A DNA stretch of 44,089 bases. Origin: Promethearchaeota archaeon. GTDB taxonomy: Archaea > Asgardarchaeota > Lokiarchaeia > Sigyniarchaeales > SOKP01. The notes beneath the pieces are model-generated. The model did no database searches, was not told the DNA's origin, and worked only from the letters and a program-made list of their open reading frames with translations. Where the stretch lies: NCBI GenBank assembly GCA_030599585.1, contig JAUVNS010000025.1:1-44089 (forward strand). Reading direction: 5' to 3'. Positions 11,382-39,800 of this stretch are shown here, piece after piece (position 1 is the first letter of the stretch; each line of letters opens with the position of its first letter). The translations under genes were made by a program, and so were the position numbers.

Positions 11382-13268
11382 TTAAGTTAATGATTGAATT
11401 AAATTTTTAAATATATTATAATCGTTGATAAATTCATAGGACAGCACCAAATTAACTATTTTAAATTGGTTCCCGGAAAAAACACTCGCTAAGTTATCAA
11501 CCGTCTTTCCTCCCTTGAAGATATCATCATCTATTATCACATTAACACTATCTTTAAGATTACTCACAATTTTCGATTTAATATGACTCAAATCTTCTGA
11601 AATAGACGATAAAATAACAGTGGGTTTTCCTAAATACGGTATGAAGTCTAAATTAAAAATTCTTACTTGATTTGTTATTCTTTCAGGTTGAACAAATCTT
11701 TTTAGAGTACGTTGTATGATCCTTACTTCCTCTTCGTTGTGATCGCTTATAGAAGGATAGATATAATAAGCAATGGATTTATCGGAATTTAACGCTAACT
11801 CCGAGTAAGCTCTATCGATTAAAGGGAAAATACTAAAATCATAGCTAAATAAAGATATTAGGGCGATTTTAAAATTAAAATTGCCAACCAGGACGTTATT
11901 ACTTACATTTCCTCCAATTAGAGCAAATGTTTCAATTTCATTCGATATTTTGGATGTGTATGTATTCAACATATAGAATTGAGAAAATTGACCAATAGGT
12001 TCTACTTTAGTTTTTTTTTCCTCAACCATTTCATAAATTTCGTTGAATAAATCTTTTGCGATATTTTCTCTAAGCTCTTCTGAACTTATTTCTCCTATTA
12101 TTTTATCCGCAGTTTCAGGGCAATCTAATTCGGCCAAGATACAAATAGTTTCTTTGAAAAATTCGTAAGCAGGATTGTTATATTTGTGTTCTGATACTGT
12201 CATTTTCTCTGAATGCAGAATAATCTGATCGATTTGTTTTAATATAGGGAGAATCAAGTCGTCCTTATTTTCATCATGGAACTTCTTTATAATGTTGAAT
12301 AAAACCTTAATTCTAATGATTTCATCTTTAATTTGATCTACAAGCTTAAGAGCAATAGATGCTTCTTTTTTTAGAGATTTAAAAAGTATTTCGAGAAGAA
12401 ATGTTTCCTTTACCGTTTTCTCTTCAATTAGGGAGAGAATTTTAGGAATTTCATCGGGATTTACATTAATATAATCAAAAGCTATGTTTTTTATTAGCTT
12501 ATTTTTTTTGTTAAGATCTTCAATATCTTTAGCTATCTTCAAGCTCTCATCTAAATTTTTAGAAGCGTTAGCCCTAATTAGGGTATTGTGTAGATCTATT
12601 CTTTCCTTCTCTTTTGAGACTTGTAGTGCGGTTTTAAGTGCTTTTTCAAATTCACCATCAGAAAAGTAAGATTTTGCGAGTATTTTAAGCTTATCATCAA
12701 TTTTCCCACGAACTATATGAGCATTGGGTTTTAATGGTTTATTATTTGAGGACTCAGCTTCAGGTTGTTGTTCAACAGCTATTTTAATTAACTCTTTAAA
12801 TTCTTTCTCAATTTTCTTAGTATCATTTTTACTAGACGGAAGAATAAAATCGTTGATGTTAAATACATCAGTTTCACCGTTTTGAAGAAATTGTTTATTC
12901 TTCAAGATAGAATTTATTTTACTCGCAGAGATAGTTTTTCTTATATGTTGAACTTTATCGGTGTATTCTACCAGTTTCAACCAATAAGCATTGATGGTTA
13001 GTTTACCAAAACCGTCTCTGACAGGCGTTACCATTAAATTTATCGTTTTAGTTTCGCTCGAAGCAAATTTAACCTCGTTTTTAAATTCGCTTGGATTGAC
13101 CTCAATATCGAGATTTTCTCCTTCAAAAACGAATTTAAAGTGTTCTTCTTTATTAGATTGATTAGTAATTTCAAGAGAAATAGGATTTTCAGCATTTGGT
13201 AATAATAGGTTTTGAGGGAACTTTTTCACAATTATCGAAATAACTTGATTGGGTTCCGGGGGAGGCAT
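11382..13268 (-). CDS. Hypothetical protein: Ig-like N-terminal domain, alpha-solenoid middle, alpha/beta C-terminal domain
   Basis: 628-aa ORF with a beta-rich N-terminus (LEITN...FKFVFEG...TINLMVTP...GKLTINAY) and repeated A(L).(A).I helical units. Confidence 0.7.
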   Translation of the reverse strand: MPPPEPNQVISIIVKKFPQNLLLPNAENPISLEITNQSNKEEHFKFVFEGENLDIEVNPSEFKNEVKFASSETKTINLMVTPVRDGFGKLTINAYWLKLVEYTDKVQHIRKTISASKINSILKNKQFLQNGETDVFNINDFILPSSKNDTKKIEKEFKELIKIAVEQQPEAESSNNKPLKPNAHIVRGKIDDKLKILAKSYFSDGEFEKALKTALQVSKEKERIDLHNTLIRANASKNLDESLKIAKDIEDLNKKNKLIKNIAFDYINVNPDEIPKILSLIEEKTVKETFLLEILFKSLKKEASIALKLVDQIKDEIIRIKVLFNIIKKFHDENKDDLILPILKQIDQIILHSEKMTVSEHKYNNPAYEFFKETICILAELDCPETADKIIGEISSEELRENIAKDLFNEIYEMVEEKKTKVEPIGQFSQFYMLNTYTSKISNEIETFALIGGNVSNNVLVGNFNFKIALISLFSYDFSIFPLIDRAYSELALNSDKSIAYYIYPSISDHNEEEVRIIQRTLKRFVQPERITNQVRIFNLDFIPYLGKPTVILSSISEDLSHIKSKIVSNLKDSVNVIIDDDIFKGGKTVDNLASVFSGNQFKIVNLVLSYEFINDYNIFKNLIQSLT

Positions 13269-13427: not shown

Positions 13428-14183
13428 CTACTTCCCCTTTCTTCTAACTCTCTTACTAAAATCTTTGAGATCTTCGATAATCATCTCCTTACTATAATCA
13501 GGCCACAAATCCGCTCTAAACTTGAATTCTGCATAAGATGCGTCCCATAATAAAAATCCTGAAATCCTTGCGCCGTCCTCCATTCCCGTTCGTATGATGT
13601 AATCTACTTCAGGAAAATCTCTCGTATAAAGGTGCTTCTTAATTACCTCTCTATTAATTTCTTCTTCTTTTATGCCCTTTTTAATAATTTCTTTTACTGC
13701 ATCTACGATCTCTTCTTGTCCATCGTACATTATGCATAAATTTATGAAATTTTTATTGTTATCTTTAGTAAAATCAATTAACTCTTTAATCTTATCTCTA
13801 ACTTCCTCAGGTAATAGGTAGATACGCCCAATTACGTTAAAATTCACTTTCTCTTCTTTGACAGTCGCTTCCTTTACGACGGCGTCAACAGCATCTAAAA
13901 TTATTCCAAAAATATATTTTATCTCTGCTTCGCTTCTTTTTCTTAAATTCTCAAGGGACAAAGCGTAGATGCTTAAATAATGTATACCTGCGTCAAAAAA
14001 ATCGAAAAGCCTCTCTCTTAAATTTTGGTATCCAATAAGATGACCAACATTAGTTCCAAGCAGATTTTTTACTGCCCAACGGCGGTTACCGTTTAGAAGT
14101 AGAAAATACTTCTAATTTCCGTCCAATATTAAACCAACATGTTTGGGTAGTTTTTTTTCTGCTATGCCTTTTAATTCTTCCAA
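13428..14183 (-). CDS. uppS: cis-prenyltransferase (undecaprenyl/polyprenyl diphosphate synthase), interrupted by a 30-nt in-frame stop-containing element
   Basis: TTG at 14183 reads LEELKGIAEKKLPKHVGLILDGN-TAG-KYFLLLNGN-RRWA...GH..GY...YALSLEN, in frame with the track ORF (YDGQEEI, DYIIRTG, RISGFLLW, YAEF, LWPD, RVRRKGK). Removing 30 nt gives a 241-aa protein. Confidence 0.9.
14087..14116 (-). other. 30-nt intervening hairpin element in uppS (candidate BHB-type intron or translational-bypass element)
   Basis: Perfect 9-bp stem TTAGAAGTA/TACTTCTAA (14093-14115, 5-nt loop), in-frame TAG at 14112-14114, flanking ACGG direct repeats (14119-14122, 14089-14092). Excision restores DGNRRW. Confidence 0.75.
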
Positions 14184-14490
14184 GATATCATAACTCTTAA
14201 AGAGATTTTTACGATGAAGACTGCTTATATAATTATATAATTATCGTGAATCCCATATTATAATTTTGATTTCTGTGGAGAATAGTCAATATATTAAGTC
14301 TACATCTTACAATCCGTTTTTTATGAATAATAATTAGAAATTTTAAGAGGAGAGAAGTCAAAATCTTCTTTTCGAAAAGATAAACAATATCAATCCGAGT
14401 ATGAACAGTTGAAAGTAGTAAATAAAGAGGAATTCTTAAATAAACACCTTGCTTAGTATCAATATCATTTAACTAGATAAGTTTTTGAGT

Positions 14491-14578: not shown

Positions 14579-16207
14579 ATGATTGGCAACGAGTATTTAT
14601 TTAGCGATATAGGTATTGATAGCGTAGGTTTTCACGCTCCAAGATACTATATTAAATTGGATGACTTAGCACAAGAGCGGAAAGTCGATCCAAATAAATT
14701 TAAGAAGGGTTTAATGGCCCATGAAATGAGAGTTCCAGAAGTTAACGAAGATATCATTTCTTTGGGCTTGAAAGCGGGATATCAAGCTATAACTAAAGGT
14801 GGTATAGATCCTAAAAGTATAGACGCATTGTTCGTAGGGACCGAAACGATTACCTATGCTGTGAAATCGGTTTCGAACATCTTCGCTGAACTGTTAGAGA
14901 TATCACCGAATTCTATAACTCAAGATACGTACAACGCCTGTGCAGGAGGTACACTAGCTCTCCTCAATGCTATTGCGTTAATCGAAAAAGATATAATAAA
15001 AAAAGCGCTTGTCATAAGCGCAGACATATCCTCCTATCACCTGGGTTCTCCAAGCGAGGCAACTCAGGGCTCAGGAGCAGTTGCTTTAGTAATTTCAAGG
15101 AACCCTAGGGTTGCTTCTTTCAGTGAGAAGTTCGGCAAAGTATCGGGAAATGTTGACGATTTTTTCCGTGCAGCTAACGAAAAACATGCTAAAGCTTTTG
15201 GTCATTATTCAGTAAAAACATATCTTGATTTCCAATTAAAAGCTTATGACGATTTAATAGCTAATATTGGCGACTTCCACGCAGATTATTATACATTTCA
15301 CGCCCCCTTCTCAAAGTTACCTATTAAGATCATGCAAGAGATAATACAGAAGCGATGGATAAAACACATTAACGATCTTCCAAAATTAAATATGAATCAT
15401 ATAAAATCTTCTATTCTCAAGAAACTCGATGCTTTTATGCACGACATTACAGTTTTACCTGAATGGTTGTATTTGAAGTTAAAAGAGAGAGGTTATACCT
15501 CGGAGACATTGGAAAGCATCTCGTATAAACTCATAGGTAATTTCACAGAGAAAGTGCTTCCCCAACTAAGAGTCCCTTCTCACTTTGGTAACATGTATAA
15601 TGCTTCAGTTTGGGCTCAAATTATTTTTATACTCGAAAATTATGGTCGAGTAAACGACACAATTTACTTTGGTTCTTATGGTTCTGGTGCTACATGCATT
15701 TCTGGTTTGCTAAAAGTCAAAAAGGATTTTAAAACTGTTGTAGATAAGAGCCCTCAAATTAACGATTTCATTAAGAACAAAGAATTAAAAACCATCCAAG
15801 AGTATGAAAAAATAAAAACTGGTGAATTTGTTCCGAAAACAGTTTTAGGCAAAATAGTCGAACACGAAAAGAATAATAAAAGAGGGTTCACTCTTCGATT
15901 TTGCGACGAGGGATGCATACTTCCTAATATTGAAGGTTTAAACCATTGTCCTAAAGGTCACTCTGGGTTTCATGAAAAGTTCTTTCCACTCTATGCCGTG
16001 CTAGAGTCAGAACCTATAGCAAATCCTAACGAAAACAATCTTAACTACCTTTACAACGGTTTAGTAAGGATTGCGGGAGATGTAAAACCTGGTTCTTGCT
16101 TAGAATACGAGATCAGGCGTCTTGTAAATGAAGATGAAACAAACTTTAACGCAATCGGAATGTTAAATTGGAGTCCTATGTATTATCCCGTTCAGAAAAT
16201 TTATTAA
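14579..16207 (+). CDS. mvaS: Hydroxymethylglutaryl-CoA synthase with C-terminal Zn-ribbon/OB-fold (DUF35-like) extension
   Basis: GTET (Glu), YNACAGG (catalytic Cys), EATQGSGAVA, FHAPF (His), GNMYNAS, SYGSG; C-terminal CDEGC...HCPKGH. Confidence 0.9.
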   Translation: MIGNEYLFSDIGIDSVGFHAPRYYIKLDDLAQERKVDPNKFKKGLMAHEMRVPEVNEDIISLGLKAGYQAITKGGIDPKSIDALFVGTETITYAVKSVSNIFAELLEISPNSITQDTYNACAGGTLALLNAIALIEKDIIKKALVISADISSYHLGSPSEATQGSGAVALVISRNPRVASFSEKFGKVSGNVDDFFRAANEKHAKAFGHYSVKTYLDFQLKAYDDLIANIGDFHADYYTFHAPFSKLPIKIMQEIIQKRWIKHINDLPKLNMNHIKSSILKKLDAFMHDITVLPEWLYLKLKERGYTSETLESISYKLIGNFTEKVLPQLRVPSHFGNMYNASVWAQIIFILENYGRVNDTIYFGSYGSGATCISGLLKVKKDFKTVVDKSPQINDFIKNKELKTIQEYEKIKTGEFVPKTVLGKIVEHEKNNKRGFTLRFCDEGCILPNIEGLNHCPKGHSGFHEKFFPLYAVLESEPIANPNENNLNYLYNGLVRIAGDVKPGSCLEYEIRRLVNEDETNFNAIGMLNWSPMYYPVQKIY

Positions 16208-36885: not shown

Positions 36886-39800
36886 ATGAAAAAAAATATC
36901 AAAATAATCAGTTTTGTAACTTTACTACTGTTTTTACTTAGCGTGGGTTTAAGCGAATTACCGAATCAAGCACAAAATATTGATGCGTTTGAAGATGACA
37001 CCAACCTAAATACAAATGATGGAGTAACTGCTTTAATATTTGGAATAAGAGGGGGACCCTCAAATATTGATCCCCAAGTAACTTGGGATAGTGAATCTTT
37101 TGCGGTAATTGATCAAGTTGTAGAAGGTTTGTTTGCCTATAATCTAAGTGATCCGAAAATGGGAATTATTCCTAATTTAGCTTTGGATTACGGCACATGG
37201 TCTGGTAGTAATTATACTGTTGATCTAAAACCAAACATCTACTTTCACGATGGAACTCTTTTTGATGCTTACGCTGTCAAATTTACTTTTGATAGATTGA
37301 ATTATTTTATGGAAAATGATTTAGTCCCAGCAGGAGACCTGTATAAATACTACGATGTTCATACCTCTGAAGTTAGAAACATCATTAATGATATTGATGT
37401 TATTGATGAAAATACAATTACATTTGTTCTTGGTCAGACATTTGCTACATTCGAAGCCTTGTTGTGTTTCGAAGGATCCTATATTGTTTCGCCTTTTTCA
37501 ACACCTGCTACAGAAATGATAGATATTTCTACCGATACTTTAATTGGAACTGGTCCTTTTGTTTTTGACAATTATGAAACTGATATCGAAGTGAATTTTC
37601 ACGCTTTTGAAAATTATTGGAAGGGCGCGCCAAATATAACAAATTTAAAGTTCGCAATCATATATGATAATCAAGCAAGAAACAGTGCTTTATTAAGTGG
37701 TGATGTTGATATAATAATTGATCCACTAGATTCAATGCTCGATATTTATAGAATAGATCCTAATATTACCCTTGAATCTACTCAGGGATTCTCAATTAAC
37801 TACATAGCAATGAATGACAAGTGGATTAATACTACATTTAGAAAAGCAATATCCTATACTATTAACTATTCTTATATTATCGATGTTTTAATGGATAGCG
37901 AAGTGGTTAGAATGAAGTCTCCCTTTCCAGAGAATATGATCTTCGCTAATTGGTCATACGATGTTGCTGATTTCAATATTACAAAAGCAAGAGAAATTAT
38001 GCAAAGCATGGGTTTTGGGGTAGGATTCACAACTAATGCTCAATGGCAGTCAGCAACTTTTGCGAGTTTCAAATTCTCATATAACATAGGAAATAGTTTT
38101 AAAGAGGATTTAATGGTTTTGTTATGGTCTTGCCTTGATCTAATCGGAATTGATGTAATAGACGACGGAATGACATGGGGGGATTTTCTTTTTAGCTTAT
38201 TCGAGGATCAAGACTCGCTTCAATTATATTGGCTTGGTTGGGGGTCTGATTATAACGATCCACATCCTATATTAAATATGTTCTTTACTAATAGATCTTC
38301 TAATGAATTTACCATACCATTTAAGGATTTTATAGTTCAAACTTGGGTTGAGGAAGCTTTATATGAAACAAATGATACTCTCAGAAATAATCTTTATAAC
38401 AAAATTCAACAACGATTGGTAGAAGAATTATATCCATGGGCATTTGGTTATGTTCCATTAGAATATGTTGCGTATAATCAGGAAATCTCAGGTTTTCAAT
38501 GGAATTCAATGCAAAAAGTGTCGTTTTATGAAGTAAATGGAATATTTAGGGATATCCCTACTCCACCCCCTACAGATACCCAAATATATATTGATGGAGA
38601 TTCCACAGGAATAGGTGCTCAAAACTGGACTTGGGCAGTAAATCAAAATTGGTGTAGTGGGGCAGGTACAATAGAAGATCCTTATATTATTGAGGATTTA
38701 ATTATAGACGGTCCGATTTTTGGTATCGTTATTAAAAATTCAGAAGTATCCTTTGAAGTTGTAAATTGTACCATTATGAATACCGGTTCTGATTTTGAGG
38801 GTGCTGCAATTCAATTAACCAATGTCACTAACGGAAATTTAATTGGAAATAACTGTTCAAATAATAAATATTATGGAATCTCATTAGTGGATTGTTATAA
38901 TTGCACAATATTCAATAACTTTCTAACCAATAACATTTATGGTATAACAGCACGGCTTTGTCAGAATCTCAACATAACTAATAATTACATGGAAAATGTT
39001 TCTGCTGGAATTGGTTATGATGATAAATGCTTTAACAGTATTATTGATAACAATACTATTATTGGAGCTACTATTGGGATAAGTCCTGGAGGTCAAAATC
39101 ATGTGCTACGTAATAATAATTTGGAAAGTTGTGGAATAATATTTTTCTATTTTTTCGGTAATATCAATGATTTAACTACATATGATGTCGATACATCCAA
39201 CACGATTAATGAAAAACCAATTTACTATTATGTAAATCGTAATAATTTAGTTCCTAACGACTTTTTAAACGCTGGACAAGTCATTTTAATTAATTGCAAT
39301 AATTCTTTGATTTCCAATTTAGACATCTCAGATTCTTCAGCAGGAATATTGTTATATGGATGTAATTATAATAACTTTTCAAATGTCAACACCCTTAATG
39401 AAGCATATGGACTCTTAATGTATCAGAGTAGTAACAATCATATCGAGAATAGTGTGTTCAGTGAATCGATTTATTATGGAATTTATATGTATGGTGGAAG
39501 TGTACTTAATACAATTGAAAAGAGTATAATTTCTGAAAATGTGCATGGAATGTACGTCGGAGATGGTAACAATACAGTAAACACTAATTTTATCTTAAAC
39601 AATACTCAAATAGGTATATCGACTGGATATGAAACTCGTGGTAGCTTGATTTATAACAATACTTTTATCGGAAATGAAATAAATGCTGCAGAAGGGGGTA
39701 CAAATCATTGGGATAATGGGATAATCGGCAATTACTGGGACGATTATTCTGGAGTAGACGCTAATGATGATGGTATTGGAGATTCACCTTACATTATTAA

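Follow-up and report, generated by a model that had tools for sequence, protein, structure and literature searches.

The window analysed here is the whole of a 44,089-nucleotide (nt) stretch of DNA from a Promethearchaeota archaeon of the Lokiarchaeia (contig JAUVNS010000025.1 of assembly GCA_030599585.1; contig C41 of genome G000 in our numbering). The subject is the gene uppS on its minus strand, which encodes a cis-prenyltransferase (PF01255) and carries a 30-nt insert that we examine as a candidate mRNA intron. The genome comprises 4.85 Mb in 52 contigs, with a G+C content of about 32%, and is scored 100% complete; a profile search of all of it returns uppS as the sole PF01255 match, so that the second cis-prenyltransferase that an earlier, sequence-only reading of this stretch had advised looking for is not found there. 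The gene is read in two parts. Exon 1 (14117-14183) begins with TTG at 14183, there being no ATG, and holds 22 codons (translated as LEELKGIAEKKLPKHVGLILDG) and the first base of an Asn codon, while exon 2 (13428-14086) supplies the last two bases of this codon and runs from RRWA through the stop; its searched part (13431-14084) matches PF01255 with 182 bits over profile positions 6-219. A TATA-like A/T run, TTATATAATTATATAA, read directly at 14225-14240 of the minus strand and 42-57 nt upstream of the TTG, may be the archaeal promoter box. The description of uppS as otherwise intact, with its start and upstream box, thus holds. TTG or GTG, and never ATG, stands at the start position in every member of the genus; many members also have an in-frame stop 1-4 codons 5' of the start.

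The insert falls within DGNRRW, the universal motif of the cis-prenyltransferase family, whose Asp is needed for catalysis in the characterised enzymes. Read on the minus strand, uppS goes through TTG GAC GGA AAT (with GAC at 14123-14121), meets an in-frame TAG (14114-14112), continues with AAG TAT TTT, CTA CTT CTA and AAC GGT, and returns to the motif with AAC CGC CGT TGG, this last AAC being at 14087-14085. In this way DGN and RRW are split by 30 extra bases (14087-14116). Within them UUAGAAGUA (14115-14107) and UACUUCUAA (14101-14093) form a perfect 9-bp helix with a 5-nt loop, UUUUC (14102-14106), which is present in both the minimum free energy (MFE) and the centroid structures given by RNAfold, and ACGG occurs on both sides of the insert, at 14122-14119 and 14092-14089. 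The sequence, stop, stem and flanking repeats are all as first quoted for the minus strand.

Around this hairpin the bases can be arranged as a relaxed bulge-helix-bulge (BHB), all on the minus strand. The outer helix h joins exon to exon, UGG of exon 1 (14123-14125) with CCG of exon 2 (14083-14085); the central helix H joins ACGG of exon 1 (14119-14122) with ACGG of the insert (14089-14092); and the insert helix h' (14093-14115) is the hairpin described above. Two 3-base bulges separate them, AAA on the 5' side (14116-14118), with a predicted cut between 14117 and 14116, and UAA on the 3' side (14086-14088), with a predicted cut between 14087 and 14086. The bulges stand four positions apart in one register only, and this register removes exactly 14087-14116, giving GAC GGA AAC CGC (DGNR) and restoring DGNRRW. 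The boundary is ambiguous by 1 nt, the removal of 14088-14117 yielding an identical mRNA. The sequence-only reading had proposed this very geometry, with each bulge cut behind its second base, and it proves exact, with helices that behave as RNA helices over 28 sequences, as reported below.

We then present the distribution of the insert, based on Pfam searches of 41 genomes (G000 and 40 relatives) and afterwards of all 42 genomes of the genus, excluding three genus copies cut by contig ends as well as four genomes without a match, three of the genus and one from another family. On the whole, uppS in the genus falls into two classes, one with uninterrupted frames of 242-250 amino acids (aa) and one in which the profile match begins only after the motif. 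The 30-nt insert is found at the identical site in 13 of the 42 genomes (14 loci, of which 13 sequences were analysed). One bearer, G013, has two PF01255 genes, both with the insert, the remaining bearers have one each, and no bearer in the genus shows a second, uninterrupted uppS in this search. The insert is absent from the remaining members of the genus with the site covered, and likewise from the 15 uppS genes found in a sample of 16 genomes representing three other families of the order, all of which have an uninterrupted DGNRRW. Among metagenome contigs, a pattern scan allowing gaps of 0-30 nt adds 26 further copies, all with a gap of 30 nt, so that the insert has this length in 39 of 39 copies, a recurrence well beyond chance. 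Five gap-0 matches in the same scan are unrelated bacterial-type UppS (RRWAKERGLP...) and are neither spliced nor intron-less alleles of the clade. Because the assemblies of the bearers stem from at least eight different studies, a sequencing or assembly artefact is excluded. In a maximum-likelihood tree of the coding sequences spliced in silico, the 13 bearers form one clade with an ultrafast bootstrap (UFBoot) of 100; since they are monophyletic despite a mean synonymous divergence (dS) of 1.07, a single gain and long retention of the insert are indicated by the sequences. Two records need a remark. A 59-aa in-frame insertion in the uppS of G019 (L039, G019:C60:2153-3995) was rejected as real, being an N-filled scaffold gap with duplicated flanks. 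In addition, the 36846-nt contig DATKTW010000113.1 (L117; of the same size as G010:C113), titled 'Candidatus Nanopelagicaceae bacterium', carries a Lokiarchaeial intron-bearing uppS and is probably a mislabelled metagenome-assembled genome.

The pairing was evaluated on two alignments, A1 with the 13 genome sequences and A2 with 28 distinct sequences, and the figures in this paragraph refer to the 28. Overall, 89% of the cells of the BHB structure are standard pairs, against 22-55% for registers slid by 1-3 columns. The stem h' is 97.6% paired, and three of its nine pairs are altered on both sides: columns 23/45 and 30/38 change from U-A to C-G, with U-G intermediates in other sequences, and columns 31/37 switch between G-C and A-U. 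Same-site 30-nt inserts with compensatory stem changes, which the sequence-only reading had advised looking for by alignment, are therefore found in related genomes. The outer helix is U-G, G-C, G-C in all 28 (100% paired), and both of its G-C pairs are predicted independently by RNAalifold. In the central helix the C-G and G-C pairs are invariant, while A.G becomes A-U in 13 of 28 and G.A becomes G-C in one; its 3' strand reads ACGG in 14 sequences, ACGT in 12, CCGT in one and GCGG in one, which amounts to three pairs in 12 copies and to four pairs, a perfect ACGG/CCGU, in one (genome G011). The first two bases of the 5' bulge are invariantly A, and all four bases occur at the third (14116); the 3' bulge is TAA in 17 and AAA in 11; and the hairpin loop has six variants. 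Hence variation is free at the unpaired, non-exonic bases: position three of the 5' bulge, position one of the 3' bulge, and the loop. Each of the 28 copies contains one or two in-frame stops.

Half of a BHB of this kind is made of exon, so that synonymous exon sites beside an mRNA intron are expected to be frozen, and this is what we observe. In all 13 bearers Leu20 is TTG, Asp21 is GAC, Gly22 is GGA, Asn23 is AAC and Arg24 is CGN. Among 24 intron-less members of the genus, TTG occurs in 2 (mostly CTT), GAC in 3 (mostly GAT), GGA in 19 and AAC in 2 (mostly AAT), and Arg24 is AGR in 10. Frozen in this way are the outer-helix pairs G14-C54, G15-C53 and U13-G55 and, in the central helix, C17-G48. 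Because the 13 sequences were found by protein homology and not by a DNA pattern, there is no circularity in this. After splicing in silico, every bearer encodes a protein of 241 aa that is collinear with the orthologues of intron-less relatives, also 241 aa long, and no frameshifts or further stops are present in the spliced frame of the 13 genome copies. The ratio of nonsynonymous to synonymous substitution (dN/dS) in this frame is 0.065 among the bearers at the mean dS given above, compared with 0.110 in the intron-less relatives, and is 0.195 among the bearers for exon 1 alone. At such a divergence these values show that uppS, exon 1 included, has been kept under strong purifying selection with the insert present.

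The enzymes for the removal of a BHB intron are encoded in G000, which has one RtcB (PF01139, 567 bits) and two EndA paralogues of about 200 aa (PF01974 scores of 97.7 and 73 bits), which lie in the regions C24:165764-165988 and C35:67256-67504. Asgard EndA has been reported as an (alpha-beta)2 enzyme whose L1 loop gives a broad substrate range including relaxed BHB (PMC5829648). The BHB of the window is a relaxed motif of the type that (alpha-beta)2 EndA cuts, as documented both for the enzyme itself (PMC5829648) and with cbf5 (PMC2738675). Given the structure with its conservation and covariation, the exon constraint, the selection on the spliced frame and these genes, the 30 nt at 14087-14116 are very probably a BHB mini-intron in the uppS pre-mRNA that is spliced by EndA and RtcB, the cleavage and ligation themselves being what we infer from sequence. 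The transcript would fold with the exon-exon helix UGG/CCG, the central helix ACGG/ACGG, the bulges AAA and UAA on opposite strands and the 9-bp hairpin. The splicing endonuclease of archaea, here probably an assembly of both paralogues into an (alpha-beta)2 EndA, would cut each bulge behind its second base, and RtcB would then join the exons to GAC GGA AAC CGC, yielding the 241-aa UppS with its DGNRRW. The predicted mRNA would join ...TTGGACGGAA to ACCGCCGTTGG with 30 nt removed, its junction reading ...GACGGAAACCGCC..., and the peptide of the full-length protein across the junction would be HVGLILDGNR. Asgard tRNA genes are reported to be heavily interrupted (PMC11291895; bioRxiv 10.64898/2026.10.13.758758). 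In G000, despite its completeness score, ARAGORN calls just 21 tRNA genes, several of them with introns of implausible length (1245 and 2889 nt). The low number is consistent with many hidden introns, and suggests that many tRNA genes of this genome are interrupted at non-canonical sites and missed by the program.

Several observations weigh against splicing at a BHB. The central helix of the window consists of two C-G pairs flanked by A.G and G.A, that is, 2 of 4 Watson-Crick pairs; this weakness had been conceded from the start, and is relieved in those relatives with three or four pairs. The outer helix is just 3 bp long. The MFE structure of the window lacks the BHB helices and instead pairs columns 45-50 of the intron with columns 55-60 of the exon in a local hairpin, for which pairing over the whole alignment reaches 86%. 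In the 16 metagenome rows of A2 the exon columns were fixed by the search pattern and therefore carry no weight for the exon constraint, and the aligned sequences are kin, so that shuffle statistics overstate significance. A structure-only BHB scan of G000 with a coding filter gave 179 matches, no excess over the 147-188 of controls in which the 3' cut was shifted by 1-2 nt and thus out of frame; it recovered the uppS intron, the other top matches that were inspected being ordinary gene boundaries. Finally, the spliced form of UppS from the bearer clade is absent among the 120 best-scoring public proteins.

The thermodynamic preference for the local hairpin, together with a central helix that is weak in about half of the copies, would favour another route at the RNA level, in which a different nuclease and ligase act on the insert hairpin and the downstream hairpin, or in which the insert is a regulatory structure removed conditionally. 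However, the inner pairs of this local hairpin are broken in 11-12 of the 28 sequences, with one compensated; the BHB pair 23/45, which covaries from U-A to C-G, competes with the pair 45/60 of the local hairpin; the BHB cut rule predicts exactly 30 nt; and we know of no enzyme acting on such a layout of a hairpin followed by a local hairpin. We consider this route very unlikely, and the local hairpin may either lower the efficiency of splicing or be accidental.

The position of the stops, within one or two codons of the junction and inside a stable hairpin in 28 of 28 copies, would equally suit programmed bypassing as in T4 gene 60 or the mitochondrial 'byp' elements, with take-off at AAU or GGA, 30 nt skipped and landing at AAC or GGU, and in the window both GGA...GGT and AAT...AAC could serve as synonymous pairs. 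This had been offered as the second model for the insert. Bypassing of the T4 gene 60 or yeast-mitochondrial 'byp' type needs matched take-off and landing codons, and it is on these codons that the model fails. The junction codon is AAT in 16 sequences, ACT in 5, ATT in 4, AGT in 2 and ACC in 1, so that Asn is not maintained, and 13 of the 28 have GTT or GTA where the GGN landing codon should be, the very G-to-U change that destroys this codon (at 14089, as in G024) creating an A-U pair of the central helix. Bypassing also has no need for exon synonymous sites fixed to pair across the insert, and we regard it as highly improbable. Reassignment of the stop, or read-through by pyrrolysine, is rejected as well, since all three stops, TAG, TAA and TGA, occur among the inserts, with one or two to a copy and no constant codon position, and the insert 'codons' evolve as stem pairs and not as codons.

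A third model was that a hairpin, possibly the footprint of a miniature inverted-repeat transposable element with its target duplication, has inactivated uppS and left a dead or dying gene. The borders lend it some colour, for 6 of the 28 copies end their intron in ACGGAA, repeating the last six bases of exon 1 (the intron of the window ends in ACGGTA), which resembles a target-site duplication of 6-7 bp around a palindrome of 23-24 nt. A pseudogene is nevertheless contradicted by a dN/dS below that of the intron-less genes, with exon 1 constrained too, by the lack of further lesions in the 13 genome copies, by the single-copy state of uppS and by the long life of a monophyletic bearer clade, and a mere footprint by the invariant length and the covarying stem; such a dead gene is barely credible. 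A search of the whole genome with 13 intron variants (blastn-short) found no other copies in G000, just uppS and short matches at chance level, of which the best, 19 nt at C40:72285-72303, lies in an uninterrupted open reading frame (ORF) without the 5' arm. The last possibility, an N-terminally truncated UppS that starts inside or after the insert, with exon 1 not part of the protein, follows the public calls for the bearer clade (P0001-P0034), which all begin there and are shortened to 206-235 aa (for example MNGNRRW... and MLGTNVGH...), but can be dismissed almost entirely, for between the insert and codon 65 of exon 2 the window has no ATG, GTG or TTG (13961 being where the first listed ORF starts), the product would be without the Asp of DGNRRW, and exon 1 is under purifying selection and collinear with the orthologues.

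It is of interest whether the mini-intron of uppS is alone in its genome. Of the check advised for further hairpin inserts in conserved genes, the structure-only scan came to nothing, as described above, while two ribosomal protein genes do carry such inserts, which speaks for the BHB reading of uppS. In uL11 (single copy, C28:32629-32833, minus strand) a 28-nt insert breaks the match of the N-terminal domain (PF03946), leaving profile positions 1-27 in one frame and 26-58 in another. This insert has AAA bulges, a 7-bp stem with a 5-nt loop and a perfect central helix, GCAU/AUGC, in the same layout as the uppS insert (1 nt, hairpin with 5-nt loop, 4 nt and 2 nt). In uS3 (C11, about 37800-38500, minus strand) a 30-nt in-frame insert contains two stops (ELEN*GKIFPLS*LPQIEV); its hairpin begins with UUAG like that of the uppS intron, it fits the layout 1+23+4+2, and its removal in the fitted BHB register gives ...ELEMPQIEV. 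Both escaped the scan, whose criteria demanded an unbroken stem and three pairs in the outer helix. It is possible, though in our judgement slightly short of an even chance, that the uppS intron belongs to a set of mini-introns of 28-33 nt, with the same layout and A-rich bulges, spliced by EndA and RtcB in protein genes of this genus, the uppS copy perhaps deriving from a hairpin insertion with target duplication. If so, the tRNA machinery would splice mRNA routinely, and possibly under regulation, as part of gene expression in archaea closely related to eukaryotes. As to the origin of the uppS copy, we may speculate that a hairpin of 23-24 nt was inserted with a target duplication of 6-7 bp (ACGGAA[A]). 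Such a duplication would make both bulges at once and leave a central helix paired only at its self-complementary CG core, as in the window, and later G-to-U and A-to-C changes would improve this helix.

Besides uppS, we note the genes on both sides of it. Divergent from uppS and adjoining it is a gene on the plus strand (14579-16207) for a 542-aa protein like 3-hydroxy-3-methylglutaryl-coenzyme A synthase (PF01154 and PF08540), an arrangement consistent with an isoprenoid or mevalonate gene cluster; no Pfam family matched its C-terminal extension of about 140 aa. Directly 3' of uppS lies an ORF of 628 aa (11382-13268, minus strand) with no Pfam match at E <= 0.001. Searches of the window with Rfam and ARAGORN found nothing.

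In the literature that we searched, BHB introns in archaeal coding sequences are confined to cbf5 of Crenarchaeota, with one further case in a 5' untranslated region (UTR) of Haloferax (PMC2738675, PMC7714728), and no report of a coding-sequence BHB intron in Asgard archaea was found there. The intron of the cbf5 pre-mRNA occurs in Desulfurococcales and Sulfolobales (Watanabe 2002; Yoshinari 2006; Yokobori 2009, PMC2738675), that is, in lineages with hetero-oligomeric EndA, and like that of uppS it arose inside one clade and has been passed on by vertical descent. The uppS case is of the same kind in a new gene and a new phylum. It differs in that uppS serves lipid-carrier synthesis in the Asgard archaea (Promethearchaeota), in that its insert is a fixed, in-frame 30 nt with stops inside a catalytic motif, and in that the splicing of cbf5 has been shown experimentally whereas that of uppS is deduced. 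A second well-supported case would show that mRNA splicing by protein enzymes reaches core metabolism in the lineage nearest to eukaryotes, here within the active-site motif of the genome's one lipid-carrier synthase. It would also have consequences for annotation. Because all public UppS calls of the bearer clade are shortened and catalytically implausible, with the 241-aa public matches belonging to intron-less clades, gene callers appear to mis-annotate such genes systematically, and reconstructions of N-glycosylation and of the cell envelope in these Lokiarchaeia could wrongly score UppS as defective.

The BHB introns of archaeal tRNAs, above all the abundant non-canonical ones of Asgard archaea (Marck and Grosjean 2003; PMC11291895; bioRxiv 10.64898/2026.10.13.758758), share with the uppS intron the h-B-H-B-h' architecture, the size class, the predicted EndA and RtcB and a motif half made of exon. 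Unlike them, the uppS intron is hosted by an mRNA, where the exon half must also encode protein, hence the frozen synonymous sites, which offer a clean example of the same mRNA bases serving both a protein code and a code for RNA shape. Haloferax volcanii has a BHB intron in the HVO_1309 mRNA, established both in vivo and in vitro (PMC7714728), which is likewise a substrate of EndA outside tRNA and rRNA. That intron, however, lies in the 5' UTR, and its splicing rebuilds no reading frame. With T4 gene 60 and the 'byp' elements uppS has in common a short, stop-containing hairpin insert in an otherwise intact ORF, but not the conserved take-off and landing codons. The IRE1-dependent splicing of HAC1 and XBP1 mRNA, which in metazoa is sealed by RtcB and removes an XBP1 intron of 26 nt (PMC13149111), provides a eukaryotic parallel. 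It too is a removal of a tiny mRNA intron by a protein enzyme, independent of the spliceosome and completed by ligation of the RtcB type; IRE1, in contrast to EndA on a BHB, cuts twin stem-loops, and its system is a regulated stress switch.

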